From a virus: DNA of 64,000 bases. How positions within the stretch are numbered: the first letter of the stretch is position 1; each line of letters starts with the position of its first letter. The stretch is from the IMG/VR virus record IMGVR_UViG_3300031334_000002, positions 1-64,000 of that record; one strand, given 5' to 3'. Below, one piece after another: positions 2,521 to 64,000 of this stretch. The notes under the pieces are model-generated. The model did not search any database. It saw only the letters and a program-made list of their open reading frames with translations, and was not told the DNA's origin. The position numbers were made by a program, and so were the translations under genes.

Positions 2521-3546
2521 ATGAAATTCACAAGATATTCATCAATTGAAAACGCATACAGAACCAAATTTATTCAAAAAATGCAAATGTATATGAGTAA
2601 TGAAGAGTTTGTTGTTCAAGAAAAAATACATGGAGCTAACTTCTCTTTCTATTGTGATGGTGAAACTGTTCTTTGTGGAAAACGATCTTCTATTTTACAA
2701 GGAGAGGAAATAGGTCAATTCTTCAATGCCGATAGTTTACTTAGTCAACATAAAAGTAAAATACTGGAGATATTTAACCACGTTAGATTGATAAAATTCT
2801 TTGATAAAGAAAGCACAGACGTAACCTCAATATCTATACATGGTGAACTTTACGGAGGAACATATCCCCACGATAATGTAGATAAAAATAACTCAGCCAA
2901 GAAAGTTCAGAAAGGTGTATTTTATTCACCAGATAATGAATTTGTTGCTTTTGATATGAAAGTTAACGAAGAGTATGTGAATATCGATCACATGAACGAA
3001 TGGCTTGATAGGTCAGGATTAACTAGATTAGAGATCTTAAAAAGAGGAAAATTAAATGAATGTTTAGATTACCCTAACGACTTTAATAGTCACTTACATA
3101 AATGTTTTCCTGAACTTGATAACAACACTTGTGAAGGAGTGGTTATTAAGACTGTCAATCCTGTTAGATTCCCTAGTGGAGATAGACCTATTGTTAAGAA
3201 TAAAAACGCCAAATGGAGTGAAAAGAAGAAAGGAGAGGGTAAAAGTGTACAAAAAGAACTACCTGAACATGTTAAGAAGCATGTATTGATAGGTCAAGAA
3301 TACATTACGGAGAATAGACTGAGGAACGTACTATCTTACATTGGTCCAATTGTTGAAGTCAAGAAAGCCTTTGGTCAGATCTTGGGAGCTTTTAATAAAG
3401 ATGTTATAAAAGACCTCATGGTAGAAAACGAAGAGTTCTTGGACCTAGAAAAACAAGATAGGAAAATAGTGACTAGTATGTTAAAGGGGTTGTCAGCGGA
3501 GATGATTAGACCCAACTTCGCCAATATACTCGATGGGGAGTTTTAA
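2521..3546 (+). CDS. rnl2: RNA ligase, Rnl2 family
   Basis: N-terminal FTRYSSIEN, motif I QEKIHGANF, GELYGG, FVAFDM, EGVVIK, IVKNKN. Confidence 0.92.
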   Translation: MKFTRYSSIENAYRTKFIQKMQMYMSNEEFVVQEKIHGANFSFYCDGETVLCGKRSSILQGEEIGQFFNADSLLSQHKSKILEIFNHVRLIKFFDKESTDVTSISIHGELYGGTYPHDNVDKNNSAKKVQKGVFYSPDNEFVAFDMKVNEEYVNIDHMNEWLDRSGLTRLEILKRGKLNECLDYPNDFNSHLHKCFPELDNNTCEGVVIKTVNPVRFPSGDRPIVKNKNAKWSEKKKGEGKSVQKELPEHVKKHVLIGQEYITENRLRNVLSYIGPIVEVKKAFGQILGAFNKDVIKDLMVENEEFLDLEKQDRKIVTSMLKGLSAEMIRPNFANILDGEF

Positions 3547-4553
3547 TGTCTACAATGACAGAGAAAATTATATGGTTTCAAAAATACCATCCAGAATTAG
3601 TAAAAGAAATGCAACAATGTACTCATCATGGTGAAGACCTCAATCCTTATCACTTAGAAGGGGATGTTTGGACTCACACTATGATGGTCTGTAAGCAATC
3701 AGAGAATCAATCGGAATTAGTACAATGGGCAACTTTACTACATGACATTGGTAAACCTAAGGTTCATTCTATTAATAAAAAAGGACATTCGTGCTTTTAT
3801 AATCATGATGCAGTTAGTGCTTTTATGGCTTTAGACGTTCTAGAAAATGCTAACTTTTGGAAGTTTAGCAACTTAATTGACCGACATAAGTTAACAATTT
3901 TTAAAGCAATATCAATACATACCCAAGTGTTTAAACAAACACCTGACAAACTTGGGGAAATGTTTGCTAATGATGTTCTTACTGCTGAAACTTTCTATGA
4001 GCTTGGGGTAGCTGATCATTCAGGTAGATTTACTAGTACAGAGGGTTCAGTTAACGAACCGGTATATACTTCTAGAGGATATCCTTCCGATAAAACAAAA
4101 AGACTCACTCTGTTATGCGGATTACCTGCTTCTGGCAAATCAAGTCATGTTAGTATCTCTGATTACGATTTTGTAGTATCTAGAGACGGATTAATAGAAA
4201 GTTCTTCACTAAATGGAACTTACAATGAAAAATGGAAGAACGCTGACCAGAAAGAAATAGATAGGTTACTGCAACTGCAATATGTCTGGGCAAAACAATA
4301 CAATAATGTTGTTATAGATATGACACATATGAACAAGAAGAGTAGAAGAAAATCTCTTTCTCACTTTGGAGATGAATACTATAAATGTTGTATTGTGTAT
4401 ATTTCACCTCTTTCAGTATTAGAGTTGCGTAATATGAATAGAAATGGTAAGGCAGTACCTGATGAGGTTTATGAAAGGATGTTGAAGTCTTTCTATCCTC
4501 CACTAATGGACGAGTTTGACGAGGTAATCTGGAAATATGACAACACTTTTTAA
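3546..4553 (+). CDS. HD-domain phosphoesterase fused to P-loop polynucleotide kinase (RNA end-healing enzyme)
   Basis: HLEGDVWTHT and LLHDIGK (HD); CGLPASGKS Walker A, SRD, VVIDMTH, R..R lid. Confidence 0.88.
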   Translation: MSTMTEKIIWFQKYHPELVKEMQQCTHHGEDLNPYHLEGDVWTHTMMVCKQSENQSELVQWATLLHDIGKPKVHSINKKGHSCFYNHDAVSAFMALDVLENANFWKFSNLIDRHKLTIFKAISIHTQVFKQTPDKLGEMFANDVLTAETFYELGVADHSGRFTSTEGSVNEPVYTSRGYPSDKTKRLTLLCGLPASGKSSHVSISDYDFVVSRDGLIESSSLNGTYNEKWKNADQKEIDRLLQLQYVWAKQYNNVVIDMTHMNKKSRRKSLSHFGDEYYKCCIVYISPLSVLELRNMNRNGKAVPDEVYERMLKSFYPPLMDEFDEVIWKYDNTF

Positions 4554-5616
4554 AGAACTAGATAAAAGAGTAGAAGATGGACATCTAAGAAAGGTAATAT
4601 CCCCATGCAGAAAACTCGTACTTTTTAACTATACTGATGCTTGCACTTACGATAAAGCATGGGACGAGCATACTTTAAACGCAAGAGGTACTGTTTACGA
4701 AATCGAAACAGGTAATATTATTGCTCAAGCTTTTCCAAAATTCTTCAACTACGGAGAGCTAGACTTAGATTTACAAAAAGACTTATTACATAGAAAGGAT
4801 TTCGATGTTTATGAAAAAGCTGATGGCAGTTTAGGTATTATATATCATTTTGATGGTGAGTGGAGGGTCAACACTAGAGGGAGTTTTTCTTCAGACCAAT
4901 CTGTATTTGCATCTAGTATGTTAGGCAATTACGATCTATCGGGATTCCCTAAAGACATAACGCTCCTTGTTGAGATTATATATCCTGAAAATAGAATAAT
5001 AGTAGACTATGGGGACGATAAAAAGTTAATACTTTTAGGAGCTTTTCAAAATGTCATTGATTTAAATTCTGAATTATTCGATATAGGATCTCGAATCAAA
5101 ATGGAAGTCGCTCAAAAGAAGTCTTTCAGCTCTATTGACGAACTAATCAAAGAAAGAGAAGTTATTCCTGCAGGAGAAGAAGGATTTGTTGTTAGGTTTT
5201 CGGATGGAGAAAGAGTTAAATTTAAAGGAATGGAATATCTAAAAGTTGCAAGAATACTCCAAGGTTGTTCTCCCCTAACATTTTGGGAGTCTATGGTCGA
5301 AGGTAATGTTGATAGGACAATACTAGAACAGATACCAGAAGAGTTTAGGGATGAATTTGATAGGATTGCTCAGGTTATTGAACATAAATACAGCGTCCAA
5401 AAACAACAATACACTGCTCTTTACTTTGATATAACAAGAAAACTAGCATTACCTCTAGTTCACGATCAAGTTAACGAAGAACATAGAAAGAAATTAGGTA
5501 TATACTTAAAGGAAAATAACATTAAAGAGTCTGGTGTTATTTTTACATTACTACTTGGACAGTCTATAGATAAGCAAGTGATGAGAGCAATAAGACCTAC
5601 AGCGAACGTTCTATGA
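4537..5616 (+). CDS. rnl1: RNA ligase, T4 Rnl1 family
   Basis: LFNYT, ARG, FPKFFN, motif I YEKADGSLGI, TRGSF, EGFVV, RVKFKG. Confidence 0.92.
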   Translation: MTTLFKELDKRVEDGHLRKVISPCRKLVLFNYTDACTYDKAWDEHTLNARGTVYEIETGNIIAQAFPKFFNYGELDLDLQKDLLHRKDFDVYEKADGSLGIIYHFDGEWRVNTRGSFSSDQSVFASSMLGNYDLSGFPKDITLLVEIIYPENRIIVDYGDDKKLILLGAFQNVIDLNSELFDIGSRIKMEVAQKKSFSSIDELIKEREVIPAGEEGFVVRFSDGERVKFKGMEYLKVARILQGCSPLTFWESMVEGNVDRTILEQIPEEFRDEFDRIAQVIEHKYSVQKQQYTALYFDITRKLALPLVHDQVNEEHRKKLGIYLKENNIKESGVIFTLLLGQSIDKQVMRAIRPTANVL

Positions 5617-45213: not shown

Positions 45214-46695
45214 TTACTTTTTCCGATTCATCACTGAGTTCATAAAAGTTTGTTGACTAGTTTGTTTATTTCCTAAGTGTGATTGGTAAACATTACTTCC
45301 TGATAATTCGAAATACCCTTCTGGATAGGGATTTTTTTCAGGTTGCAAATTTCTAACGAGATACACGAGCGCATCAAGTAAATCTGAGTGATTAGCTTTA
45401 ATATTCTTATTTTTATTTCCTTTATTTCTAGCAAATTCTTTTCTATTAGGTTTCCATTTAGCATTGCGAATATGTTCTATTAAATTAACACATCGGGGAT
45501 GGATCTCTATCTCACCACGTTTAAACATCATCCTAACCATGTTCACTTTATCTTCTTTTCCGTCTTTTTTTGTAGCTTTAAATCTGATATCATGGTTAGC
45601 AAGAAGGTCGTTTATGAGAAGTGGTAAGTTATTATCAATAATTCTCATGTAAGGTTTTTTTACTTCGCCAGTATACGGGTTTGTGTATACTGAGGATTCT
45701 TTTCTAACTATACAATTAGCTATATCGTCAGTGGTTAATGCTCTTTGTCCTTCTCCACCAAGAACACCTTCATCTACTATTACTAGTTTTTTTCTAAGGT
45801 AATCAAAATAACCAAAAACTATTCCAGTTAAATCGACAACTGCCGGATCGCACGACACGTACCCATCGTAGTAAACTGGAATTTCTACCTCTTTGAGTAT
45901 ATCTTTTTCAAGATCGGACCACTCAGGAATAACCATTAAAGAACTATATGTATTACTCTTAAGAAGGTATTCTCTTTGGTATTCTGGATCTTCCTCTCCT
46001 AGAGGGTATCTGGCTATAATTTTTTCTCTAACTTTATCATTAATTAACGGATTCGAGTATATATCGTACTCAACAAGCCAACCTTTGGATCTATAAACAT
46101 CAACAAAGTTAGTTAAAAAAGGATGATCAGGTTCTTTAGAGGGAGTTGATGCTATTATCATTTTACCATTAGTAGTTGTCATGGTAGGTAATAGAATAGA
46201 GTTAACTATGTACATCATGTCGTTATAAGGAAAAAACCCACCTTCGTCACATAATATTAAATGTATAGTCTTTCCTCTTGCCGCTTCTGCATGTCCACCA
46301 TCAGCACCAGCCATCATAATAATAGAACCGTTGGGGTATACAAATTCTTTATCTGCGATTTTATGTTCAGGTTTAAGGTATTCAGGACAATCTTTATGTA
46401 TTGTTCTCATTTGTTCTTTAGCGACTGCTGCTGCCATGTTTTTTTTAGGAAACATTAATAGAACTTTTGTGTTCGGGTTTTTTTGACAATACTCTGCAGC
46501 AATTAAACACATGGTATAACTTTTTCCTGTTTGTCTCGAACATAAGAAAACGGTAATGTCGTGAGGCGAGTCGTACACTTTATCGCGCATTTCTTTTTGT
46601 ATTCCTTTTAGCTTATACGACAAATCTCCAATTTCCCAGAGTTTCGCTATTGCTTGTTCTTTAGATAATGTCTTTTTTCCACGTTTGGTTGTCAT
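45214..46695 (-). CDS. terL: Terminase large subunit
   Basis: SRQTGKS Walker A, LCDEG Walker B, ASTP, YQREYL, SCDPA, HSDLLDALVY. Confidence 0.95.
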   Translation of the reverse strand: MTTKRGKKTLSKEQAIAKLWEIGDLSYKLKGIQKEMRDKVYDSPHDITVFLCSRQTGKSYTMCLIAAEYCQKNPNTKVLLMFPKKNMAAAVAKEQMRTIHKDCPEYLKPEHKIADKEFVYPNGSIIMMAGADGGHAEAARGKTIHLILCDEGGFFPYNDMMYIVNSILLPTMTTTNGKMIIASTPSKEPDHPFLTNFVDVYRSKGWLVEYDIYSNPLINDKVREKIIARYPLGEEDPEYQREYLLKSNTYSSLMVIPEWSDLEKDILKEVEIPVYYDGYVSCDPAVVDLTGIVFGYFDYLRKKLVIVDEGVLGGEGQRALTTDDIANCIVRKESSVYTNPYTGEVKKPYMRIIDNNLPLLINDLLANHDIRFKATKKDGKEDKVNMVRMMFKRGEIEIHPRCVNLIEHIRNAKWKPNRKEFARNKGNKNKNIKANHSDLLDALVYLVRNLQPEKNPYPEGYFELSGSNVYQSHLGNKQTSQQTFMNSVMNRKK

Positions 46696-46730: not shown

Positions 46731-47078
46731 TTAACTTTTTGCTATTTTGATCAGATCTTTAACTTGGGCTTTAGTTTTGGTTTTAGCTTTCTTTTTAGGT
46801 TGACCTCCCCTAATAAGGTTCAAGTCTTTCACTAGAGTGTCGAATATTTTAGCTTGTTCTTGGTCGAAAGCCATTCCTTCAGATTGTTCCTTTAATCTAC
46901 CTATCTGAGAGATACATATATATTCCTCATCTGACATTTCAGGTATATCATCTATGTCTAGGTCATTATCTCTTATAATCTGTTCATACTTGTAGATTTC
47001 TTTTTCTAATTCGGAAATTTTTTTTCTTAAAGCTTCATTCTCAAATCCACTTTCCATTCCTAGTATATCATCTGACAT
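46731..47078 (-). CDS. Candidate terminase small subunit
   Basis: Helical 115 aa immediately upstream of terL. Confidence 0.35.
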   Translation of the reverse strand: MSDDILGMESGFENEALRKKISELEKEIYKYEQIIRDNDLDIDDIPEMSDEEYICISQIGRLKEQSEGMAFDQEQAKIFDTLVKDLNLIRGGQPKKKAKTKTKAQVKDLIKIAKS

Positions 47079-47346
47079 TCTTTCTCCTAATCTCTCTAGT
47101 AAGTTTCACGCCAAGTCCCATTGCTTGGATGACTCGACGAACTCTTTCTTTTAGGTATCTAATGTCTTTGGTTTGAGATACCCCTCTCCTAACTATGTTT
47201 CCATTACCCATATTAACGATCTCGAATTTCATACCTTCAGGGTAGAGTCTAATGGTATAACGTGCTCCGGTTACTTGTGATAATATAACCCCAGATACGA
47301 GTCTTTCATTTTTCTGGTCTTTAAAGTATCTTATTCTAGTTTTCAT
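47068..47346 (-). CDS. Hypothetical basic protein
   Basis: GAGG RBS; stop overlaps next start. Confidence 0.55.
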   Translation of the reverse strand: MKTRIRYFKDQKNERLVSGVILSQVTGARYTIRLYPEGMKFEIVNMGNGNIVRRGVSQTKDIRYLKERVRRVIQAMGLGVKLTREIRRKNVR

Positions 47347-47410
47347 TAAGTCCTCTTGTCAAAAACATTTATTTACTTCCTGTAAATTGTTTTTGCCTAC
47401 GGCATCCTGC

Positions 47411-47761
47411 CTAAAAGCGCATTCCACCTTTAGTTTCGATAGTTTTACTAATTTCACGTTTTGTGTATTCTTGATCTGTTAAGAACTTCTTAAGTTTTAA
47501 GGCTGCAATGTCATTTTCTTTTTTTAAGGCAGCGATTTCGGAATCTTCCAAAATAGGCTTTTTAAGGTCAAGCTCTTTATCAAGGATACGAAATTTTCTT
47601 AAGTCCTTACGGTGTAGATGTGACAACACCTTAGGGACTACCATCAAAAGAGATAGGACACCTAAAACGAGAGCTTCTTGGAATGTAATTGGATGTAATA
47701 CTGATTTAGAACAAATAAATAATAAATAGGCTACAAATAAGCCTAACGGAAGGTGTTTCAT
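47411..47761 (-). CDS. Two-TM membrane protein
   Basis: AGGAG RBS; two hydrophobic helices then coiled coil. Confidence 0.55.
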   Translation of the reverse strand: MKHLPLGLFVAYLLFICSKSVLHPITFQEALVLGVLSLLMVVPKVLSHLHRKDLRKFRILDKELDLKKPILEDSEIAALKKENDIAALKLKKFLTDQEYTKREISKTIETKGGMRF

Positions 47762-47808
47762 TTTTTCACTCCTGAAGTAAGTCCAGTAAACCAGCAATTA
47801 AGTATTGT

Positions 47809-48045
47809 TTACTTTTTCTTTTTAAGTAGTTTTTTTAATTTATCATATTTGACACCACCACATGCGTAAGTGTCATTATCTTCTCTTTCTTTTCTTTTTT
47901 TGTTGGCAGCATCAATGGCTTTTGCCCGAGCTATGTCAGTTGGGTCCATTCCTTCGTAATTTCTTTCATAAGGATCTTTCTCGCCAGTTTCTTTTCTTCT
48001 TCTTTTTTTAGAGAGCAATTTAGCTCCCATAGCTTTCCAATCCAT
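47809..48045 (-). CDS. Small very basic late protein carrying a YACGG motif
   Basis: First gene behind late motif at 48104; GGAG RBS. Confidence 0.6.
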   Translation of the reverse strand: MDWKAMGAKLLSKKRRRKETGEKDPYERNYEGMDPTDIARAKAIDAANKKRKEREDNDTYACGGVKYDKLKKLLKKKK

Positions 48046-48973
48046 ATGTTGACTCTCCCAAGTATATATGCTATTCTTATTTTGACGTATTAATAACCTA
48101 TATCTAGTTGTTAAATTTATGAAAAACTACCTATTTAAATCTAAAGTTCTTTTCCCTTTGTCCTTCTGAAGAGGAGTATTGGGTAGATGCGGAGATTATT
48201 GTTGATGAATTAGCCTACATGATTTTATCTCAATGGGAAGTAGGGTCATCTAGAGCAGTTTGGTAGGTTGAGAACAATAATTCTCTATATTTTAGGTTTA
48301 ATGTTACAATTAAGGAGTCAATATGGGGTTATCTGGAGCAGTCTGTCCGGCAAATAGGTCTAAAAACATTCTAAAAGACCTTCAATACATAAAAGAAACC
48401 TATGTTGAGTACTTTTTAGGTGGAAATGAGAGTGGTTTGCGTGAAGCTAGTGATCTTTTTTCTAAGATTGAAAAGTATATAGTAGAAATCTCAGCAGAAA
48501 GGAAAGTACTAGATGCTAAATTGGCTGAAGAAATTAAAAAATCTTAAAATTTGGTGTTATTTTGGGTTTCATAGATGGGTAAAGATTAAAAAGGAGTTGA
48601 TTTGTTCAAAATGTGGAAAGATTGTACTATTCTAATAGGTCTTTCACTGCCTCCCGTACTTTTTATTTGCTTTTGTTTGTATTTTATAGTACCTTCTTAC
48701 AGAGTTGGTGATTGTTTATTGCTAAATGATAACAATAAGTTGTACAGAGTTACTGGTTTCAGACTAGACCGCTATATTTTGAACGAAAAGATAAAATTAA
48801 ATTATAGAATGGTAGATAATAGCTCTAAAAAAGTAAAATGTACCATTTCTGTAAAAGATAAATATATGTTAGATAAGGACTTTAAATGAGAAAAGTGTTT
48901 GATAGCATTGCTATAATTCTAATAGGTTGGAGTTTAGGTACATTAATTACACACTTAGTATTAGGAGTTTAGT

Positions 48974-49150
48974 ATGTATTGTGCTATATTAACTTTGTTG
49001 TTGGTTAACGGACAGAATTGGACATTTGAAGACCTGAATGATATGGAGTATCAGGCAATCAAATGTAATACCAGAGGGTTAGGTTGTTTAAGTAAGGTTA
49101 CGAAAAAGAGTGAATACGAAATAGAATACACTTGTGAGGTAAAAAGATGA
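48974..49150 (+). CDS. 58-aa Cys-containing protein, paralogue A (not in ORF track)
   Basis: AGGAG RBS; MYCAILTLLLVNGQNWTFEDL...CLSK...C. Confidence 0.7.
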   Translation: MYCAILTLLLVNGQNWTFEDLNDMEYQAIKCNTRGLGCLSKVTKKSEYEIEYTCEVKR

Positions 49151-49385
49151 GTAATTATACGTTTTTATTAGAAAATGAAAATAGAAGACTAAGAAAGTCA
49201 GTTAAAAAAGAAGTTGAAGACAACCATAATCAATTATTTGATAGAATTGACTTTTTAAATGACAAAATTATCGAAGCAATCGGTTGGATGCACGCTGAAG
49301 CTTGTGTTGCTGTAGACAAAGGGGAAGATATTAGAAATATATCAATCCCAGATTTAATAGATAGAGCAAAAAGGGATTTAGAGTT

Positions 49386-49565
49386 GTGATCTGTACGGTA
49401 CTGTTGTTAGTTCTACTAAATGGTCAAACATGGACCTTCAAAGACCTGACTAATATCAGAGCTTCTGCTAAATCTTGCCAAAGAGAATATAAACAATGCT
49501 TAGGTAAGTTTGTGAAAAAGGGTAATAGGAATTACTATGCAGAATGTAAAAATAAAAGTAAGTAA
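49386..49565 (+). CDS. 59-aa Cys-containing protein, paralogue B (not in ORF track)
   Basis: GTG overlapping previous stop; MICTVLLLVLLNGQTWTFKDL...CLGK...C. Confidence 0.7.
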   Translation: MICTVLLLVLLNGQTWTFKDLTNIRASAKSCQREYKQCLGKFVKKGNRNYYAECKNKSK

Positions 49566-49812
49566 ATATAAAAGAGAGATAGAAGAATACTACATGTATG
49601 AAGATATTTTTTGTACTAACTGTGGAGAAAAAGGACACGTTTATAGTCGGCTAGGTAATGAATGTTACTACCAAGGGGCAACTTATTATTGTATTAATTG
49701 TAGTAGCGTGGCAATGGAACCTTGCTTCCATAAAACCGAAAATGACGAATCTATCATTGCTTTGAAGAAGACATTAGAGAAGGCTTTAGAGCTTGACAAG
49801 AAAGAGGACTAG
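49537..49812 (+). CDS. Zinc-finger protein
   Basis: CTNCG...YYCINC. Confidence 0.55.
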   Translation: MQNVKIKVSKYKREIEEYYMYEDIFCTNCGEKGHVYSRLGNECYYQGATYYCINCSSVAMEPCFHKTENDESIIALKKTLEKALELDKKED

Positions 49813-49821
49813 GGATAGTAT
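49793..49821 (+). promoter_or_regulatory. sigma70-type promoter
   Basis: TTGACA-17-TAGTAT upstream of a short ORF starting ~49882. Confidence 0.5.
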
Positions 49822-50354
49822 AGGTTTAGCCCATGGGAGGGCTTAGAGAAAGGATGAGAGCTTCTGGGGGAGGAGTTAGTAATGGAGACTACGTTTACAA
49901 TAAAATTAGACCATGAAGGGTTTTTTATTGCAAGAAATGTGACAGTTATGTCACCCCCTACAAGATTAACCGAAGAACAATTAATGGAGCTAAACGTTGA
50001 CGTTGTATATATTTAATACTATAAGACAAGCGATCTACCAAAAATGCTTCCTGAATGTTCCAAGCTAAGTTTAAACGGAACTAAAGATTACAAAGTACAC
50101 ACGCTAACCCAGAGAACCGATCGTCTTAGAGGGTGTAGGTTTTATTTGTCGATTGTTTTTGGTTTAATGAAACGTGCGAAGAAATAATCCGTATCACCAA
50201 AAGGGACACTAAAGTTCAAGCTATTGATTGTTGGTCTGGAGAATGGGGTGATGTGTGTAACATACAGTATTAAGTCTAGGTAAGTATATATATTGTTAGA
50301 GAGTCTCCTATAAATCACCCAACCCAAATGTCCCTCACCCCCCACCACCCCCCT

Positions 50355-50791
50355 TGGCATGGAACTTGCAGATGCAATAAACGTGCCAGTGTTCTAGCTG
50401 GCATGGAACTTGCAGTAGCAATAATTGTACCAGAGCTACCCCTTGCAAGTAACGGACCAAGAAGACTTGGCAACCTACTTGCAGATGCAATAGTTGTGCC
50501 AACCTTCTAAGATAGTTCTTGACACATAATAGTTTGATTACCCAAACAAAGATAGTTCTTGACAAACCTTTTAGTATGCAAGATCTATGCCATTAATACC
50601 TTGTCAAGTGTTAATATTCTGACACCCATTGTATAAACATTTTACATATCTATCAGGATAACAGAATGACCGCTCTAAGCTATCCTAACGTTACCCCTAG
50701 TCAGTACATGGAAAGTTATTTTAAATGGATTCTAGAGGTAATCTGAGCTGCCACAGATTGTTGGTATTAGGTCTATGGCATGTTTCTTGCA
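50355..50791. promoter_or_regulatory. Array of nine sigma-54 (RpoN) -24/-12 consensus sites
   Basis: TGG-N8-TTGCW with exact GG-N10-GC spacing at 50355+, 50373-, 50399+, 50417-, 50444-, 50468+, 50486-, 50577-, 50776+. Confidence 0.85.
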
Positions 50792-50809
50792 ATACCTTCT
50801 TATAGTGTA

Positions 50810-51184
50810 TATAAAAATAGTGCTTGTAATAAATGACACATGGTGTATACTGGTTATATAGAAATAAACAACAAAGGAATTAAATATGACTAAGTGTCCA
50901 AGTATTTTAACTCACCTATTAAGCGTTTATAAATCAGCCAATGATGAGGGAGCTGCTTACAGAACATTAAAGGCTTGTGTATTCACTAATAATCAGCCAG
51001 TCAATATAGTGTCAGCGATGACGGCGATTAGAGACATTCAATGTATGATTAGATTAGATAGGTGTCATGCTGTAGAATTAGAGTATTGTATCAGATACTT
51101 TTCAGAAGTAACGGCATATAGTGCGATTGAAATAAATCAGCGATTATAAAAATAGTGCTTGTAATAAATGACACATGGTGTATA
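50810..51184 (+). repeat. 40-bp perfect direct repeat containing an early promoter (50810-50849 and 51145-51184)
   Basis: TATAAAAATAGTGCTTGTAATAAATGACACATGGTGTATA twice, flanking ORF 50886-51149. Confidence 0.9.
50886..51149 (+). CDS. Early hypothetical protein
   Basis: Own promoter and AAGGA RBS. Confidence 0.6.
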   Translation: MTKCPSILTHLLSVYKSANDEGAAYRTLKACVFTNNQPVNIVSAMTAIRDIQCMIRLDRCHAVELEYCIRYFSEVTAYSAIEINQRL

Positions 51185-51217
51185 ATGAAGTATAGAAACA
51201 AACAACAAAGGGAACTT

Positions 51218-51484
51218 ATGAACTTAGACACTACACTTATAGAAAATTTAGAGCTGATAGACAAAAAGAGAGTAGGTCAGGAATTTGAAATGATTTCAAA
51301 GCATGGTAACGCATACAGGTTTAGTCTTATTTTTAATAGTCGTGGTAACTATGGCTATATAATTGAAAGGCAAAACGGAATTACAGGAAAATACCATTTT
51401 GAAACTTCTAGCGGATACCTAACAAGTAGGTCTCACCTATATCAATGCGTGGAGTCTCAAGTATTTTACCACTATGAACTTTAA
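51218..51484 (+). CDS. Early hypothetical protein
   Basis: Start reassigned downstream of promoter, AGGGA RBS. Confidence 0.6.
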   Translation: MNLDTTLIENLELIDKKRVGQEFEMISKHGNAYRFSLIFNSRGNYGYIIERQNGITGKYHFETSSGYLTSRSHLYQCVESQVFYHYEL

Positions 51485-51556
51485 TACTTTTTAATTATGA
51501 CACATGGTGTATAATGAGCTGATTTACTAGAGTGTAACAAAGATAGGGGGTAACTA

Positions 51557-51817
51557 ATGATTTACTTTGTGCAATTACTAAAAGCTGTTAAAGATAAAAG
51601 AATGTTAGCAATGATGCTAAATGATATTCAGTGGGAAGTGGAGGAGCTAGGTTACACTGGTCTAGAGAGTGAACTAATAAATGAATTATTGTCTAGTCAT
51701 TTTGGTGTCGAGATAGAATGCCCTAATCAACTAGATATGTTAACTAAGTGGGTACTCAATAATCAAGGTCTCATCAATACAAAGGCTGAAGAACTAGTGA
51801 AATCATATAACCTGTAA
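51557..51817 (+). CDS. Early acidic helical protein
   Basis: AGGGGG RBS; followed by terminator. Confidence 0.6.
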   Translation: MIYFVQLLKAVKDKRMLAMMLNDIQWEVEELGYTGLESELINELLSSHFGVEIECPNQLDMLTKWVLNNQGLINTKAEELVKSYNL

Positions 51818-51841
51818 ACTAGGTAACATTTAAAAGATCAT

Positions 51842-51867
51842 AGCCCCTAGAAATAGGGGTTTTTTTT
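51842..51867 (+). terminator. Intrinsic terminator
   Basis: AGCCCCTA-GAAA-TAGGGGTT then T-run. Confidence 0.9.
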
Positions 51868-52574
51868 GGTTAAAATAGTTATTGACAAACAGTGGCACTT
51901 GTGCATACAGGGGATAGTTGCAATGACCTAAAACTGCTGGAAGAACTGGACCTAATATTGACTGAGATAGAGGTAAGTGGTTGATATCAAAGGGGTTTTA
52001 TGGCAGCCTTCTTTGGTATACCCTATACACTACTTTTAAGCTGTATAACCTAATTCGCTATCAGCTAGTAACCTTAAGCACTCTTTATTGTAATGTTTGG
52101 AAGTTTTATAGATAAGAAAAATGTTGGTGACTACATGGTTACTCTGTACTACCAGTTGTTAAATGTTGACTTACGCATTTAGTTAAATGGCGAATTTCTA
52201 GGATAGGAGACCTAAGAGGATGTAATAGATATTAAAGCACGGTCGTACTTACGCACAACTAAGTTGTTGATTACTGGTGAGCGTAAACAGATTCCAAGTA
52301 CTTACAAAATGTAATTTGGTGGAAAGATTTTCAGGTATTAAAATAATAATTCAATTATAGCCTATTATTAAATAGTTATAATAAATTATTTTCTTTACAC
52401 GAGGTGTTATTTTTGCTATTATAGTTATAGGGAAACAAAACAAGGGATTAAAGCAATGAACCAACTAAACGAAGATTATATCTTTGAAGTGAGGAAAAAA
52501 TGAAGTGGACTTAGACAATTATACCGCAAAAGGTCAATGTTAAAAAATACTTCACTTTCGGGGAGAAAATAGTA

Positions 52575-52967
52575 ATGAAAATAGAAATAACACCTAAACA
52601 ATTATACTTGATAGAACTAATTAATGAGAAGCGGGGTAAAAGAAATAAGTTATTAGCTAGTCAGTCTTCCATAGACTATTACACTAAGTGGTGGGCTGAT
52701 TACGCTCTAGAAATAATAGAAGAGCTAGGAGACTTTGATTTTAGTGGGGTAGAGGTAGAGATAACAGATAGCACTAGTTCAAATTGTTATCGTTCAGAAA
52801 ATTATAAAGTAACATCTCCTAGAAAGCTAGAATCAAGAGACCTAGATATACTTAGAGCTTATGATACTTTTATGGGAGGTCAGGAGGTGGGAAAGTTATA
52901 CCGAGAGGAGGAGATAAACGGAAAATTTGTCTATAATCTAAAATCGGTATGTGATAGTTCAGACTAA
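52575..52967 (+). CDS. Early hypothetical protein
   Basis: GGGGAG RBS, 130 aa. Confidence 0.6.
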   Translation: MKIEITPKQLYLIELINEKRGKRNKLLASQSSIDYYTKWWADYALEIIEELGDFDFSGVEVEITDSTSSNCYRSENYKVTSPRKLESRDLDILRAYDTFMGGQEVGKLYREEEINGKFVYNLKSVCDSSD

Positions 52968-53068
52968 ACAAAATTATTAGAATAGTGGTTTATTTTTTAA
53001 TTGACATACTGTATTAAATAATGTATACTAATTTTAGAAGGTAATAAATGATTCAAAAAGGAGACAGC

Positions 53069-53221
53069 ATGACTATTACTAAACAAATATCAGTTATCAT
53101 TAGAATTCTAAACAATTCTAGATTACACACTTGCCCTTGTGGATTTCAATGTATGCCTATGATTGTCAGTGGTAATAAGTTTACGTGTCCAGAATGTGAA
53201 AATGAAAGCGAGATTCAATAA
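53069..53221 (+). CDS. 50-aa zinc-ribbon protein (not in ORF track)
   Basis: AGGAG RBS; CPCG...CPEC; own promoter at 53001. Confidence 0.6.
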   Translation: MTITKQISVIIRILNNSRLHTCPCGFQCMPMIVSGNKFTCPECENESEIQ

Positions 53222-53504
53222 TGATAGAATTATTTGTATACATTAACGGCTTTGTTATTGTAACAATAATCGGTATTGATATGTTGATGAATAGTAAAAG
53301 GAGAAGATAGTGAAATATGTAATTGCGCCACATAAAGGATACTGGGCAGTATGGGAAGATGTTGACAATTGGAAGAAGTGTAACCCTATTAGTGATCTTT
53401 ATGTGGATTATATGGGAGCATTCCAATGGTTATTAACAAAATAGTTATTGACGCAGTGTATAAAGTATGATATAATTATGTATAACCTAAAAAAGAGGAC
53501 AATC

Positions 53505-54152
53505 ATGGAAAAATCAATACTCGAAAAAATACAAAAACTTTTAAAACTAGCCGAGTCGTCAAATGAGAATGAAGCAAAACTAGCAATGACTAAAGCGCAG
53601 GACCTCATGTTGAGACATAATATCAGTATGCGTAGCGTTGAAAACCATGATAGTGAATATATCAATGAAACTTCAGACACTTTTAAAAGAAAGCCCGAAA
53701 ATTCGGACTATATCAATAACATTTTAAGAAAATACTTTTTTATTGAGATAGTAACATCTAAAAGACATGGGGGTTCATTTTTTAATTATATAGGTGAAAA
53801 AAATAACGTTAATACGGCTATTTATATGAGAAACTTTATAACTGATACTTTTAAAAGGTTGTGGTTAGACTACAAAAAAGAGACTGGGGTAAGTGTTAGG
53901 TCTAAAAGTTCTTTCATGTATGGATTACATCAAGGTTTTTGTGAGAAGTTAGAAGAACAACGACAAAACGTAGAGCAAGAAACAGGACTAGTACTTGTAA
54001 ACGACCAAAAAGCAACCAACAAAATGAATGAATTATTTTCTAAATTGTCAAAGGGTAGGGCTTCAAAAACTACTATTAGGGATTGTCAAGCTGTTAATAG
54101 TGGTGTAAGACAAGGTAAAAAGATTACAATATCAGCAGGTGCACTAAAATAG
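53505..54152 (+). CDS. DUF2786-domain protein
   Basis: ILEKIQKLLKLAES.NENEAKLAM.KAQ.LM.RHNI; SFMYG; start after GAGG. Confidence 0.85.
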   Translation: MEKSILEKIQKLLKLAESSNENEAKLAMTKAQDLMLRHNISMRSVENHDSEYINETSDTFKRKPENSDYINNILRKYFFIEIVTSKRHGGSFFNYIGEKNNVNTAIYMRNFITDTFKRLWLDYKKETGVSVRSKSSFMYGLHQGFCEKLEEQRQNVEQETGLVLVNDQKATNKMNELFSKLSKGRASKTTIRDCQAVNSGVRQGKKITISAGALK

Positions 54153-54203
54153 TTATTGACATACTATAACACACTGTGTTATACTTAGGTAAGGGAGTAA
54201 AAG

Positions 54204-54674
54204 GTGAACTACAAAAGAAAAGACATTGATCTAGCTTATAGTAATATTAGAACTATTATTGATAAGCTCATGATACGATATCAGGTTAATTTTAAGCCCT
54301 CTAGTAATGCTCCTAGTACTTACAAGGCTATGCGCTCTAAAAGAGACGAGAACGGCTATTTCGTTGTTTACAACGGTGGTGATCATGGACTACTAGGTGA
54401 GGACTATAATATTAAGTTTAGAGCCCTACATGACTTTATGCATTACAAGCATAATTTAAGTTTTAAATTTGAAGATGAAAGAAAATTGTCCGATATAACA
54501 ATGATAACTTTTAGTGAAATGGCATGGGGTGAACTAAACATTACAGCTTGGCAGACTCATTGCATTCGACAAGTTATAGATAGGGAAATAAGAGGACAAA
54601 TTGATTATTTTGAAACAAGAGGTCACTATGTACCTAATCAAAGTGTGTTTATTTTAGACCACTTCAACTTATAA
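54204..54674 (+). CDS. Hypothetical protein with N..FRALHD..H (zincin-like) motif
   Basis: NIKFRALHDFMH, F..E, EIRGQ. Confidence 0.55.
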   Translation: MNYKRKDIDLAYSNIRTIIDKLMIRYQVNFKPSSNAPSTYKAMRSKRDENGYFVVYNGGDHGLLGEDYNIKFRALHDFMHYKHNLSFKFEDERKLSDITMITFSEMAWGELNITAWQTHCIRQVIDREIRGQIDYFETRGHYVPNQSVFILDHFNL

Positions 54675-54689
54675 ACAAAAGGAATTTAC

Positions 54690-55175
54690 ATGAAAAAACT
54701 AATCGCATTGGCTACTCTAGTTTTACTAACAAGTTGCGGGAAAGACATTTCAGTTATTGAAACTTTTAAAACTCAAGATTTCGAAGGTTTCTATTTTTGC
54801 GACAATCAATCAAGTTTAGAATTACTAGTTGATTTTAACAATAGAGTGACATTTGAAACAAGCGGTCAATCTCTTAATACCGTTAATCCAGTTAACGACA
54901 CACTAGGGACACATCCAACAATTGGAGAAAGGGATTTATTGATGGCTAACAATAAACTAATAGTTACACCTAGAAACTACAACTATAATTCAGCCACACA
55001 CGATATCGAAGAGGACATTGGTGGGTCCGACATCAATGGTAACAGACGCACGGACTTAGAGGTAGTTTTGGTTAAAGAAAAGGAAGTGAACATTACTATC
55101 AGCATTTTTGCTAATGCTGTAAATTCAAATGTCAATAATGTTGTAGTAAAAAGAACAATTAATTGTAAAAAATAA
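54690..55175 (+). CDS. Lipoprotein (possible superinfection-exclusion/receptor-blocking)
   Basis: Signal MKKLIALATLVLLTSC lipobox; function is inference. Confidence 0.6.
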   Translation: MKKLIALATLVLLTSCGKDISVIETFKTQDFEGFYFCDNQSSLELLVDFNNRVTFETSGQSLNTVNPVNDTLGTHPTIGERDLLMANNKLIVTPRNYNYNSATHDIEEDIGGSDINGNRRTDLEVVLVKEKEVNITISIFANAVNSNVNNVVVKRTINCKK

Positions 55176-55588
55176 GTTGACAATAATAACGCATAGTGTA
55201 TAATTAAAGTAAGTCAAAAAGGGGGTATTTATGGCATCACAAAATTATCTAAATACTCAAGAAGGTGAAACTACGGAATTGGTTCAAATTTTCCTACCTA
55301 CCATAGATACCCCCCCTTCTATTTCTCGTTTACATGAGCTGAGGATGACGAAAAGAGTAATGGACAAAGTAAAGAAACAAAGCGAAACATTTTATAGATA
55401 TAACGACAAGGAGAATGTAGCATGAAAGGATTAAATAGTCAGAATTTTTTCTATTTAGGATTACTAATTGGTTTATCTATTTTAATAATTATGCAGGAGC
55501 TACTGGAATGGTTTATTGGATAACAAAACATTTAATTTTATTGTACTTTTTAATTTTTATAATCAATCAAGCTTAATAGGAGCATAAC

Positions 55589-56230
55589 ATGGCAGATAAA
55601 AAAGGGAACACTGGTTACAGGAACACTGGTTACAGGAACACTGGTGACATGAACACTGGTAACTATAACAATGGTGACAGTAACACTGGTAGCTGTAACA
55701 CTGGTTACAGGAACACTGGTAACATGAACACTGGTAACATGAACACTGGTAGCTGGAACACTGGTAACATGAACACTGGTAGCTGGAACACTGGTAACTG
55801 GAACACTGGTAACTATAACACTGGTAGCTGTAACACAACAACACCTAATGTTAGATTATTTAACAAAGAAACAGACTGGAAATTTACGGGGACGAAGTAC
55901 GCATCTTTTTTGAATAAAATTTATAAATACCAATGTAATCTTTGTAGGTGGGTATATAGTAAAGACATGACACTTGAAGAGAAAAGGGACCATAAGACAC
56001 ACGAAACTACAGGAGGTTATTTAAAAGTGTTAAAATCTAAATACAACGAAAAAGAAGTCTCAAAAGAGGACATTGATTACTTTGAAAGTCTTCCTAACTT
56101 TTGTCCTAAGATACTAGAGGAGACTACTGGAATTGTATTAAATAAAACCAAAACAATAGAAATTGACGGAGAGACCATTGAAATTAGTCTAGATAGTTTT
56201 AATCAATTAAAGAAAAGTTTACTTAAATAG
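55589..56230 (+). CDS. NTGxx pentapeptide-repeat protein
   Basis: ~15 tandem 15-bp units AACACTGGT-N6 (55607-55835); ETTGGYLK, SLPNF..I..E.TGI C-terminus. Confidence 0.85.
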   Translation: MADKKGNTGYRNTGYRNTGDMNTGNYNNGDSNTGSCNTGYRNTGNMNTGNMNTGSWNTGNMNTGSWNTGNWNTGNYNTGSCNTTTPNVRLFNKETDWKFTGTKYASFLNKIYKYQCNLCRWVYSKDMTLEEKRDHKTHETTGGYLKVLKSKYNEKEVSKEDIDYFESLPNFCPKILEETTGIVLNKTKTIEIDGETIEISLDSFNQLKKSLLK

Positions 56231-56240
56231 GAGAAGGACT

Positions 56241-56651
56241 ATGCGTCAAGTTGTATTTACAGAATTTTTTATCTTTTCAGCACATAAAAAGGGACTCTCG
56301 GTAAACGAGAATCATAAGAGGTCTAGAGAGCTTTGGAATGTTTTAACAGATTTAGGTGTCAACTTTGTTAACGTGGGAGGATGTTATAAAGACGATAAAC
56401 AACAATCAATTATGTTACTAGACGGGAATGAGGAAACTGTAAAAGAGCTATGCGGCTTATATGATCAAGAAAGCTACTTGCATAGAAGTGCGGATAACTC
56501 CGTTTTACTTAAAATGTTAGAAGGGGAAATTATAGAGTTAGGAGAACCATTGGTAATAACTCAAAATGAACTAAACGATTTTGAAAGTTACACAATTTTA
56601 CCTCAAAAAAATGGCACTAATCTGTATTTTACTTTTAAAAAGGTACAATAA
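56241..56651 (+). CDS. S-adenosylmethionine lyase (T3 SAMase-like)
   Basis: Aligns by eye to T3 gp0.3: FIFSA...N..R...L, GCYK, L...Y.QES.L, YTI. Confidence 0.75.
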   Translation: MRQVVFTEFFIFSAHKKGLSVNENHKRSRELWNVLTDLGVNFVNVGGCYKDDKQQSIMLLDGNEETVKELCGLYDQESYLHRSADNSVLLKMLEGEIIELGEPLVITQNELNDFESYTILPQKNGTNLYFTFKKVQ

Positions 56652-56695
56652 AGGTTGACAAGTAATGACACATAGTGTATACTTAGGTAAGGGAG

Positions 56696-62468: not shown

Positions 62469-63055
62469 TGTACGTATGTCAATGTGATCCAAGTAAGGAT
62501 GACGCTTTAGAAGCAGTGGGTTCTTTTAGACAGGTGGAAGTAGATGGTGAAGGGATATGTAATGAGTGTGGGTATTATGCATTATTCACTACCACCTTTC
62601 AGGGATCTGCCATGAGAGGAATGTTCGATTCACAAGGATGTACTATTTTTACGAGCAATAAATTGTTTACTTATTTTGAAAACATTAGACACATAGAGTC
62701 AAAGTATCAACTTTATAAGATTAGAAAAGGACTCTCGGAAAATGGATACTATAATGGTAAAAATTACACTGTCATCCTAGGTCATAAAAATGAACTACCT
62801 GAAGAGTTAAAATTTAGTGAACCTAAACCTATATACGTTTTTAAAACTACAGGAAGCTTTGAAGGAGTATACGATACCCAAAAAGCGGTAACAGATGGCA
62901 CTGGTGTATCAAAAGAGATCGTAAGGAAATGCTTAAAAGACGGTCAGTGGAAAACTAAGAAAGGGTTTATTATTACTTATAATAAAAACCTAAACGTACA
63001 AGAACATCTTAAAAATATAAAAAAATTAAGGGACCAAGAAGAAATCGATTACTAA
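62468..63055 (+). CDS. Zn-finger plus NUMOD1-type HTH protein
   Basis: CQC...CNECG; KPIYVF...G.Y.....A....GVS...V.KCLK...KT.KGF. Confidence 0.65.
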   Translation: MYVCQCDPSKDDALEAVGSFRQVEVDGEGICNECGYYALFTTTFQGSAMRGMFDSQGCTIFTSNKLFTYFENIRHIESKYQLYKIRKGLSENGYYNGKNYTVILGHKNELPEELKFSEPKPIYVFKTTGSFEGVYDTQKAVTDGTGVSKEIVRKCLKDGQWKTKKGFIITYNKNLNVQEHLKNIKKLRDQEEIDY

Positions 63056-63289
63056 AGGTGATAGAATGTTTAAAATAGAAGACGTATATTTTGATGAACT
63101 AGATTATTTTTTTAACTACGAGTTTGATTTTCCTAATGATGAAACTTTTCCACTAGATAATAAACAGAAAGAGATTGACACAGGGTATTGTTCATGTAAT
63201 AATAGGAAAGAGACTAAGGTTCTAATTATGAACGAAGTTGTATATGTATGTAAAAAAGCCGATGGTGGCTGTGGTCGAGAAATAAAAAA

Positions 63290-64000
63290 ATGATATACTT
63301 AGAAAACCAACCAGTGGATGTTACTATATTTCCTGATAAAACCTCTCAAGTATGGAATGTTAATGAACAATGTTTAGCCTCAATAAAAAACTTTACTAAT
63401 GGCGCTCAGTGTACCGTTACTTGGTCTTTTGAAAGTGAGGGTGAATTTCTTCATCTTGCTCAATTAAAAGATCTACTAGATAGCGAAGGTATTTCGTCTA
63501 TACTAAATATACCAACGTTACCCTATGCTAGACAAGATAAGGAGATTAACAATAAAGAAACGTTTGCACTTAGAACTTTTGCTAAATTATTAAATACTCT
63601 AAAATTTAAAAGAGTCTATTCAAAAGACGTACATAATATAAAATTAACGGAAAGTCTAATAGACAACTTCGCTAACATAGCTGCCGACCCTTCTATCAAT
63701 ATGGTATTTGATAGAGTAAAAGCTGATATGATATGTTTTCCTGACGAGGGAGCTAAACTTAGGTATAACCTAAAAAAAGAGAGCTGTTATGGTATCAAAA
63801 AACGATGTCCTGAAACAGGGTATATAGAAGGGTATAATTTCGTTGGTGAAGTTAGAGGTAAGATTATTCTGATCTGTGATGATCTTGTTGATGGCGGTAT
63901 GACATTTATAAAATGTACTGAGAAATTACTACAAGGGGGGGCGAAAGAGGTTTACTTATATGCCAGTCATGGTATATTTAGTAAAGGAACTAACGTTCTT
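63290..64000 (+). CDS. PRPP-synthetase-like protein (Prs/Adps), truncated by window end
   Basis: My translation: FPDKT, LPYARQDK, DVHN, FPDEGA, ICDDLVDGGMTF, LYASHGIFSKG; absent from ORF track because no stop in window. Confidence 0.9.
   Translation, partial: MIYLENQPVDVTIFPDKTSQVWNVNEQCLASIKNFTNGAQCTVTWSFESEGEFLHLAQLKDLLDSEGISSILNIPTLPYARQDKEINNKETFALRTFAKLLNTLKFKRVYSKDVHNIKLTESLIDNFANIAADPSINMVFDRVKADMICFPDEGAKLRYNLKKESCYGIKKRCPETGYIEGYNFVGEVRGKIILICDDLVDGGMTFIKCTEKLLQGGAKEVYLYASHGIFSKGTNVL

Follow-up and report, generated by a model that had tools for sequence, protein, structure and literature searches.

A gene-free gap in the genome of an uncultured phage, recovered from salt-lake metagenome runs, carries nine closely packed 16-mers whose assignment as sigma-54-type sites is well supported by sequence comparison, and the array formed by these sites sits at the boundary between two early units. 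We tentatively propose that this array is a docking cluster for the host sigma-54 polymerase, one in which the orientation of individual sites would not matter and which may serve as a sink for the polymerase and/or as a barrier or landmark at the early-gene boundary. Our ranking of the explanations considered below places such occupancy first, conditional promoters second, a genome end, packaging site, origin or anchor third, and a phage-encoded binding protein last. The window analyzed here comprises positions 1-64000 of an 80,105-bp IMG/VR record, which is classed as linear and has a CheckV completeness of 92%.

Sequence and geometry of the site array

A scan of the window with the pattern TGG-N8-TTGCW recovered all nine 16-mers listed by the first-pass annotation, each at its coordinate and on its strand (50355+, 50373-, 50399+, 50417-, 50444-, 50468+, 50486-, 50577- and 50776+), and the exact GG-N10-GC spacing claimed for them holds in 9 out of 9 cases. 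The three face-to-face pairs described in the same annotation (50355/50373, 50399/50417 and 50468/50486) have exactly 2 bp between their -12 boxes and form three 34-bp palindromes of the type TGGCA-N6-TTGCA-NN-TGCAA-N6-TGCCA. Constant -24 and -12 boxes combined with variable spacers, also claimed at the outset, are seen across the nine sites. When the sites were scored at the 12 informative positions of the sigma-54 consensus (TGGCAYR-N4-TTGCW), six had no mismatch, one had a single mismatch and two had two. The array and the features around it, in the coordinates of the window, are as follows:

48104..48113, minus strand: one copy of TAACAACTAG, the phage-specific late motif, preceding the first late gene
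49929..49944, minus strand: degenerate tenth site (TGT for TGG), an inverted copy of the 50776 site, from an inverted-repeat search
50017..50885: gene-free control gap of 869 bp in the ORF list, between a plus-strand unit of seven ORFs (48323-50016) and a plus-strand block starting at 50886
50332..50353, plus strand: C-rich tract abutting the first site; Logan contigs break here in 2 of 4 runs
50355..50388: palindrome 1, sites 50355-50370 (plus) and 50373-50388 (minus); the -12 boxes are 2 bp apart, and neither site has a mismatch to TGGCAYR-N4-TTGCW
50399..50432: palindrome 2, sites 50399-50414 (plus) and 50417-50432 (minus; TGGTA and TTGCT variant); 2-bp gap
50444..50459, minus strand: single sigma-54-type site, TGGTCC variant with 2 mismatches
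50468..50501: palindrome 3, sites 50468-50483 (plus; TGGCAA variant) and 50486-50501 (minus); 2-bp gap
50509..50564, plus strand: two exact 16-nt copies (50509-50524 and 50549-50564) of the usual upstream/-35 promoter element of this phage, each followed by a poor -10
50577..50592, minus strand: lone consensus sigma-54-type site that overlaps the would-be -10 belonging to the second of these sigma-70-type -35 elements
50776..50791, plus strand: lone consensus sigma-54-type site, 95 bp before ORF 50886 and 32 bp before the -35 box of the strong sigma-70 promoter
50814..50852, plus strand: strong sigma-70 early promoter with an ACAC-N3-GTGT operator, first of two copies of a 43-nt repeat (second copy at 51145-51187)

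The core of the array holds seven sites in 147 bp (approximately one per 21 bp), compared to nine in 437 bp for the array as a whole, and its start-to-start series of 18, 26, 18, 27, 24 and 18 bp is made up of the packing values that are typical of the entire class of arrays (see below). The same is true of the single site 50444-, which lies in tandem with the preceding minus-strand site at 27 bp, counted between starts, and back to back with the following plus-strand site at 24 bp. The GC content of the core is 47-52% in a genome of 35% GC, and the repeats of the array are mostly inverted. Only one of the nine sites, 50776+, faces the start of an ORF, the other eight being directed at another site or at the antisense strand of genes. 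We ruled out a hairpin or cruciform reading of the palindromes, since the spacer of one arm does not complement that of the other.

The pattern TGG-N8-TTGCW occurs 19 times in the window, as compared to 3.0 ± 1.8 times in dinucleotide-preserving shuffles, none of which reached 19. At the rate observed in the rest of the genome, 0.06 sites would be expected in the 437 bp that hold nine (Poisson P ~3e-17, or ~5e-15 after correction for the number of windows). The first-pass annotation had reported no comparable site elsewhere in the window and had anticipated enrichment at the array alone. The enrichment is indeed there, with 9 of the 19 matches within 437 bp, but it is not exclusive, as 10 matches (versus ~3 expected) are located outside of the array, among them isolated or weaker ones such as 54549+ and 10218+. 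The same annotation saw no credible ORF in the array, in agreement with the lack of a family match for any of the ORFs that cross it; the only look-alikes of these ORFs are ORFs that cross other arrays.

Gene context

The virion genes (including terminase at 45214-46695, portal and capsid) are located on the minus strand, from 47797 down to 13613. The late motif TAACAACTAG is present in seven copies, all of them on the minus strand (0.36 expected), which precede late genes including the first one at 48045. A sigma-70-like promoter at 48049-48077 heads the seven small plus-strand ORFs (48323-50016), and no plus-strand terminator-like site was found between this operon and the array. To the right of the gap, plus-strand ORFs of no known family follow strong sigma-70 promoters that share the ACAC-N3-GTGT palindrome, all of them from 50836 rightwards. 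Both blocks that flank the array, the late minus-strand block with TAACAACTAG and the right block with sigma-70 promoters and ACAC-N3-GTGT, therefore have promoter classes of their own. The remaining genome encodes a family B DNA polymerase, a DnaB-like helicase, ThyX, an RNA-repair trio, NAD salvage genes and RIIA, and its closest cultured head genes are those of a Silvanigrella phage (27-28% identity).

Searches of the gap and its surroundings for other functions gave negative results. Pfam failed to identify any family among the ORFs inside the gap, as did PHROGs and Pfam among the neighbor proteins of the array. At the gap, searches for Rfam families (one match, far below threshold), tRNAs and DnaA-box clusters came up empty, and an AT-rich stretch was not seen at the array. 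An ATPase of the Sigma54_activat family (PF00158) was found neither in this phage nor in five 100%-complete array-bearing phages, although the host may supply an activator. No Sigma54_DBD-like domain was found in this phage. The search for a T7-type RNA polymerase, a weak one as its control was silent, found none in these phages.

Assignment of the sites to sigma-54

A palindrome scan of IMG/VR in which only the four 5-nt boxes were fixed (20 specified bases, or less than one chance match by a rough estimate) retrieved the 34-bp palindrome from 44 phage contigs ranging from 34 to 60% GC. In 596 Gb of bacterial and archaeal genomes the palindrome was matched only twice, and one of these two matches belongs to a viral contig that had been binned into a MAG. 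In the 90 half-sites from the 44 unrelated contigs, the two positions left free after TGGCA are occupied by C or T in 89 of 90 cases and by G or A in 87 of 90, reproducing the TGGCAYR of the sigma-54 consensus. A 90% consensus of nine homologous arrays retains little besides the boxes, and the orthologous palindromes of Pakpunavirus combine constant boxes with divergent spacers. The first-pass annotation had argued for selection on a protein-binding pattern, naming as a sign to the contrary relatives that keep the spacers and not the GG/GC boxes. The opposite is seen, with boxes kept and spacers lost, and the argument is further strengthened by the fit of the free positions to the consensus and by the phage-specific layout.

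The motif is unchanged over a GC range of 30-63%, among phages whose terminases share 20-44% identity, and in Pakpunaviruses. This constancy across diverse phages, and a match to the consensus that extends to every informative position, are more readily explained by a single conserved host factor than by phage proteins that co-evolve with their sites. The sigma-54 holoenzyme forms a stable closed complex at sites of this kind and does not fire without an enhancer-binding ATPase. Judging from the sequence, sigma-54 itself would be the factor that binds the predicted sites.

Architecture of the arrays as a class

We surveyed the architecture of 839 sites in 138 loci. The preferred start-to-start distances are 18-21 bp for sites that are face to face, 23-26 bp (then 32-36 bp) for those back to back and 26-28 bp for those in tandem. 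A scan that left the gap free placed the -12 boxes 2-5 bp apart in 112 of 155 distinct face-to-face pairs, with almost none at 0, 1 or 6-8 bp; the count at a gap of 2 among the 155 pairs is inflated by the initial palindrome scan. The footprint of a sigma-54 closed complex is approximately 30 bp, and sites packed at 18-28 bp are thus too tight for several holoenzymes to be accommodated simultaneously. The 2-5 bp limit between -12 boxes suggests a mechanism more specific than packing.

In the complete genomes that were checked there is essentially one array per genome, with 17/17, 10/10, 8/8, 6/6, 6/6 and 6/7 of the sites in one locus and 0-1 in a reversed-pattern control. The outermost sites point inward (plus, then minus) in 35 arrays and outward in 9. 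Isolated intragenic sites, 21 of them co-oriented with the gene and 21 antisense, have no gene-directed bias. In some other phages (L020 and G006) sigma-54-type sites are dispersed, at roughly one per gene. An array lies between divergent genes in 60 loci, between tandem genes in 46 and between convergent ones in 5 (n=111), and arrays are often found 0.4-1.3 kb upstream of the first lysis/packaging genes. The terminase family is present in 65 of 139 loci, at a median distance of 1.3 kb from the array, which in the first terminase cluster is upstream of the terminase start in 15 of 15 loci. A protein of ~130 aa that belongs to no known family is encoded ~0.4 kb from the array in 44 loci.

Relatives and synteny

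A blastn search with positions 49500-51500 against 50,697 phage records gave no match, and protein-seeded searches (with RIIA, a 234-aa protein or terminase alone) returned either nothing or one contig that ends short of the array region. Retrieval independent of the motif, by means of a terminase profile, gave 21 metagenome loci. Of the loci with long upstream flanks, three distant relatives (L175, with 44% terminase identity, L177 and L167) have sigma-54-type sites clustered 4-6 kb ahead of the terminase gene, while three others have no such sites. The layout of L175 and L177 is that of the window, namely a late block, then a divergent junction followed by several small ORFs, a gene-free gap that holds the sites and finally more ORFs, and their small ORFs have no recognizable homology to those of the window. 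A check for the same array next to terminase or early genes of relatives had been proposed in the first-pass annotation; site clusters of this kind are present in L175, L177 and L167, in the former two in a gene-free gap. Most sites of L175 and L177 point at the downstream block, and L177 has a proximal site at a distance similar to that of 50776+ before ORF 50886. No arrays were found in the cultured terminase relatives (Vibrio phage QH, Alteromonas phage ZP6, Stenotrophomonas phage BUCT555 and the Silvanigrella phage).

Genome ends and the comparison with Pakpunavirus

The first-pass annotation placed the array at the probable genome end, which is a supposition and not an observation. The record does not end at the array but runs from 1 to 80105, and its positions 1-84 are repeated at 79869-79952. 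The 24 phage-bearing runs were examined as assembled contigs, which cannot show the ends of a molecule. Among four runs the array does not differ by a single letter, 47000-50839 is covered by one Logan contig of one run, and one run contains a natural 335-bp deletion between the two 43-nt promoter repeats. The depth of the array contig in one run is ~2x that of its flanks, which mixed strains explain equally well as a terminal repeat. The "direct terminal repeats" assigned by IMG/VR to two array-bearing contigs had to be discarded as evidence of ends, since these repeats of 127 and 144 bp are assembly overlaps; in one of the two contigs the array is located mid-contig.

Circumstantial support for a genome end comes from the syntenic position upstream of the terminase block in the relatives, and indirect support from cultured phages of the genus Pakpunavirus. 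The terminal redundancy of PaP1, mapped by experiment, is 1190 bp (PMC3652863). Terminal repeats are annotated in K5, Ab02 and EM of this genus and carry conserved sigma-54-type sites; the annotated repeat of K5 (1-1182) has 4 strict sites in 1182 bp versus ~0.013 expected. Overall, five sigma-54-type sites in the ~1.2-kb terminal repeat are conserved across five Pakpunavirus members at 73-89% identity, several of them within an HNH endonuclease gene. The palindrome is also present in Pakpunavirus, in a 625-bp gap at ~80.4 kb. Our literature search found no link between rpoN and Pakpunaviruses.

Another phage of interest in this respect is PAK_P3. Hi-C revealed in it an early 14-kb loop with two anchors, both gene-free and untranscribed ("devoid of genes and transcription"), of which one is at the termini (PMC13510664). 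Matching by distance, as the text of that paper gives no coordinates, we take the inner anchor to be probably the gap at 50570-51081, which contains two sigma-54-type sites; the gap at the termini contains none. The Pakpunavirus counterparts of these gaps have 3 and 5-7 such sites.

Occupancy and alternative explanations

According to the explanation that we favor, the array would act through occupancy rather than transcription, with host sigma-54 (RpoN) polymerase docked on it as closed complexes, and would be maintained by the phage in the gene-free stretch that separates its first rightward operon (48323-50016) from the early block under operator control (from 50836). For one member of a face-to-face pair to melt its DNA, it would have to open the binding site of its partner, and each 34-bp palindrome would therefore hold one polymerase, in either orientation, and be poorly suited to firing. 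Once the phage DNA has replicated, the sites would far outnumber those of the bacterial chromosome, which in Salmonella has approximately 70 sigma-54 binding sites (PMC3844500). Sigma-54 polymerase may thereby be retained on phage DNA, which would make the array a sink, or it may block or mark the boundary irrespective of orientation, as a barrier or landmark, or both. Titration of RpoN, capping of an end and help with DNA entry, as suggested in the first-pass annotation, are no more than candidate roles. That the complexes stay closed, and that the phage gains from it, we infer. Occupancy is favored over ordinary promoters because no activator gene was found, because melting would run into the partner site and because the orientation of the sites is unbiased. 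The first-pass annotation had likewise considered the geometry poor for ordinary promoters, an opinion that we share in view of the tight packing, the unbiased orientation, the failure to find an activator gene and the different promoter classes of the flanking blocks. More polymerase could be held per site if the sites were further apart, which counts against a sink. The narrow 2-5 bp gap, the bias toward divergent junctions, the position upstream of lysis/packaging genes, the normal promoter distance of 50776+, the dispersed sites of L020 and G006 and the sigma-54 promoter reported for phage YuA (PMC10914365) count against occupancy in general.

A more far-reaching version of the occupancy proposal, which appears to us rather doubtful, holds that phages of many lineages carry a dedicated DNA element, a face-to-face array of sigma-54 sites, that captures host sigma-54 polymerase without transcription. 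At its boldest, two sigma-54 molecules would clamp the two fork junctions of a small bubble in the middle of each palindrome, which would explain the 2-5 bp gap between -12 boxes. The array may then be a sigma-factor sink, a transcription barrier or a protein-primed point of unwinding or anchoring at the head of the early region or at a chromosome end.

A different role, and in our view an unlikely one, would be that of conditional sigma-54 promoters that operate in both directions, are fired by a host enhancer-binding protein or by an unrecognized phage activator, and provide the flanking blocks with an additional input dependent on signal or time. The enrichment of arrays at divergent junctions (60 of 111) and their rarity at convergent ones (5) are in line with such promoters, as are the common location 0.4-1.3 kb upstream of the first lysis/packaging genes, the position of 50776+ 95 bp before ORF 50886 with a matching proximal site in L177, and the direction of most L175 and L177 sites toward the downstream block. 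A sigma-54-like promoter is reported for phage YuA on the basis of capped-RNA mapping and a promoter trap (PMC10914365), and these phages appear to depend on the host polymerase, as no T7-type RNA polymerase was found (a weak argument, given the silent control). On the other hand, neither this phage nor the five complete array-bearing phages yielded a Sigma54_activat ATPase, and the face-to-face overlap turns each melting region into the binding site of the partner. The PAK_P3 gap with two sites, a match by distance only, fits an untranscribed anchor (PMC13510664). Moreover, arrays of up to 17 sites are far beyond what a promoter needs, their outermost sites are mostly inward, and the isolated sites have no gene-directed bias. 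In the present phage, minus-strand sites would read antisense through seven genes, and both neighboring blocks already have promoter classes of their own.

Two further explanations appear to be still less probable. A physical or replicative landmark (a terminal repeat or packaging start, a replication origin or a looping anchor), in which sigma-54 polymerase would be a host accessory factor in the way that IHF is at lambda cos, seems quite improbable. It draws on the association with terminase (upstream of its start in all 15 first-cluster loci; in 65 of 139 loci overall, at a median of 1.3 kb), on the grouping of this family with T7-, T5- and VP5-like terminases, which we take to be those of phages with terminal repeats, on the five conserved sites inside the 1.2-kb terminal repeat of Pakpunavirus, on the contigs of two runs that break at the C-rich tract beside the array, and on the early 14-kb loop of PAK_P3 with one of its two gene-free anchors at the termini (PMC13510664). 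Yet the "direct terminal repeats" of the two array contigs are assembly overlaps with one array mid-contig, the cultured terminase relatives QH, ZP6 and BUCT555 lack an array, the terminal gap of PAK_P3 lacks a sigma-54-type site, the array has neither a DnaA-box cluster nor an AT-rich stretch, and several repeat sites of Pakpunavirus are within the HNH endonuclease gene. A packaging site (cos, pac or DTR) would be expected to co-vary with the terminase that reads it, and such co-variation is not seen: the motif is the same among terminases of 20-44% identity and missing in the cultured relatives. Nor does the array look like an iteron-type origin, with no DnaA-box cluster, a core of 47-52% GC, mostly inverted repeats and neighbors without a family. 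The least probable explanation, and a distinctly remote one, is that a phage-encoded DNA-binding protein (a small terminase, initiator or repressor) binds the 16-mers and that their likeness to sigma-54 sites is coincidence or mimicry. Iterons, centromere-like sites and packaging sites typically consist of dense alternating repeats, a small protein would fit the packing more easily than a holoenzyme, and the ~130-aa protein of no known family ~0.4 kb from the array in 44 loci would be a candidate. However, phage proteins and their sites normally co-vary, and here the motif is identical across terminases of 20-40% identity, Pakpunaviruses and GC contents of 30-63%. The sigma-54 consensus is matched at all 12 informative positions, two of which had been left free, a gap that varies from 2 to 5 bp is unusual for a dimeric binder, the neighbors of the array match no family and are not common to the syntenic relatives, and no Sigma54_DBD-like domain was found in the phage.

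Significance and comparison with known systems

Alone among bacterial sigma factors, sigma-54 parks polymerase in a complex that is both stable and silent. Should phages exploit this parking by means of site arrays, these would represent a device for host takeover or genome organization that is encoded purely in DNA, adding a role of sigma-54 outside enhancer-dependent promoters and a new item to phage-host biology. We know of no DNA-encoded sigma-factor sink, and our search of the literature found no description of sigma-54 site arrays in phages. New in this study are the terminase-linked synteny of the arrays, seen in relatives retrieved without use of the motif, the occurrence of the face-to-face palindrome in 44 viral contigs as against 2 bacterial matches together with the 2-5 bp gap rule, and Pakpunavirus as a cultured test system whose terminal repeats, mapped experimentally in PaP1, contain sites. 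The array idea is directly testable because these cultured Pseudomonas aeruginosa phages (PaP1, K5 and the PAK_P1 group) carry the same palindrome, and rpoN mutants and ChIP tools exist for their host.

With respect to titration, the closest analogy is the E. coli locus datA, which titrates DnaA. Like the proposed sink, it is a cluster of high-affinity sites that holds a regulator instead of expressing a gene, the difference being that datA is a host locus and its ligand an initiator protein. The anchors of the PAK_P3 loop resemble the arrays as untranscribed gene-free gaps that flank early genes, one at the terminal repeat and the inner one with two sites; they differ in that the paper names no factor and the terminal gap is free of sites, which makes the connection a lead only (PMC13510664). 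Pseudomonas phage YuA (Ceyssens 2008, as cited in PMC10914365) is similar in being a virulent phage with a sigma-54-like promoter and different in having a single promoter with no array or palindrome.

Among bacterial sites, ChIP has mapped non-productive and intragenic ones in Salmonella, E. coli and Vibrio, with interference and antisense control among the proposed roles (PMC3844500). These have in common with the phage sites that many of them drive no obvious gene, but they are scattered singles of weaker consensus, ~70 per 4.8 Mb, as opposed to the consensus-grade, dense phage sites of fixed geometry. Finally, the bacterial -24/-12 promoters of the glnAp2, pspA and nifH type (TGGCACG-N4-TTGCW) have the same boxes, the same GG-N10-GC spacing and the same Y and R preferences as the phage sites. 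In contrast to these promoters, which are single, face a gene and are each provided with an enhancer and an AAA+ activator, the array of this phage consists of 7-9 abutting sites in both orientations, in a gene-free gap of a genome in which no activator gene was found, and is built on a face-to-face palindrome that hardly ever occurs in 596 Gb of bacterial and archaeal sequence.

Sequence motifs of the phage

Outside the array of nine sigma-54-type sites (50355-50791), 10 more matches to the loose pattern TGG-N8-TTGCW are found in the window versus ~3 expected, and nine of these 10 run in the same direction as local transcription; this may be due to coding-strand composition rather than function. 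The phage has motifs of other kinds. TAACAACTAG is present in 7 exact copies on the minus strand (window 21869-48113; 0.36 expected), all upstream of late genes and in the same orientation as those genes, and probably serves as a late promoter or an activator site specific to the phage. Six plus-strand copies of ACAC-N3-GTGT (window 50836-56678; 0.69 expected) are all contained in early sigma-70 promoters right of the array, and AAAATAGTTnTTGACA is an upstream/-35 element common to the promoters of the phage.

Array contigs and record ends

Among the salt-lake metagenome runs containing the phage, one shows a natural 335-bp deletion (window 50810-51144) between two 43-nt promoter repeats, through which the ORF at 50886-51149 is lost. 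In run X15, the array contig (window 50314-50839) has a depth of 42.7 versus 22-25 for its flanks, a rough doubling that could reflect either a terminal repeat or a conserved array common to several strains. As to the record ends, window 1-84 recurs exactly near the record end (G000 79869-79952), after which the sequences diverge; this 84-base repeat could stem from the starts of paralogous genes, or else from a circular join that is imperfect.

RNA-repair genes and terminase

window 2521-5616; L162:47-2485: RNA-repair trio and NAMPT-like gene

The trio comprises an Rnl2-like ligase, an HD/kinase protein and an Rnl1-like ligase; the NAMPT-like gene (812 aa) has a weak, below cut-off intein-domain match in mid-gene. 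The sole IMG/VR relative of the terminase, an 859-aa ORF (L052:77-2656, 71% identity), exceeds the 493-aa query by ~370 residues; the query aligns from residue 56 on, at L052 1337-2650. The extra residues could be inserted sequence (an intein, for instance) or could stem from a fusion.

Sigma-54-type sites in cultured Pseudomonas phages

Features of Pakpunavirus and PAK_P3 genomes
L061:1-1182: direct terminal repeat of Pseudomonas phage K5 (KU497559), five sigma-54-type sites (131+, 344-, 623-, 1023-, 1078+)
L051:3314-3499 (K5 80267-80452): Pakpunavirus face-to-face palindrome and third site; also L013, L032, L042, L044-L046
L060:571-1081 (PAK_P3 50570-51081): gap 1, two sigma-54-type sites; a 24-nt direct repeat is present three times
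L156:2819-3739 (PAK_P3 62818-63738): gap 2, location of the termini; a CCCATTGTGTAAC-like motif occurs five times

The five terminal-repeat sites, several of them inside an HNH endonuclease gene, are kept in 5 Pakpunavirus members (K5 and L185-L188) at 73-89% identity. The palindrome and third site are housed in a 625-bp gene-free gap amid small early genes, and a TTGACA box follows the palindrome at a distance of 10-14 nt; among orthologous palindromes the boxes are constant and the spacers vary.

The largest two gene-free gaps flanking the PAK_P3 early genes have ~13 kb between them, and no sigma-54-type site was found in the one with the termini (62818-63738). According to a Hi-C study, PAK_P3 has two untranscribed loop anchors (PMC13510664); both gaps (50570-51081 and 62818-63738) fit these anchors, as matched by distance to a text that carries no coordinates (PMC13510664).
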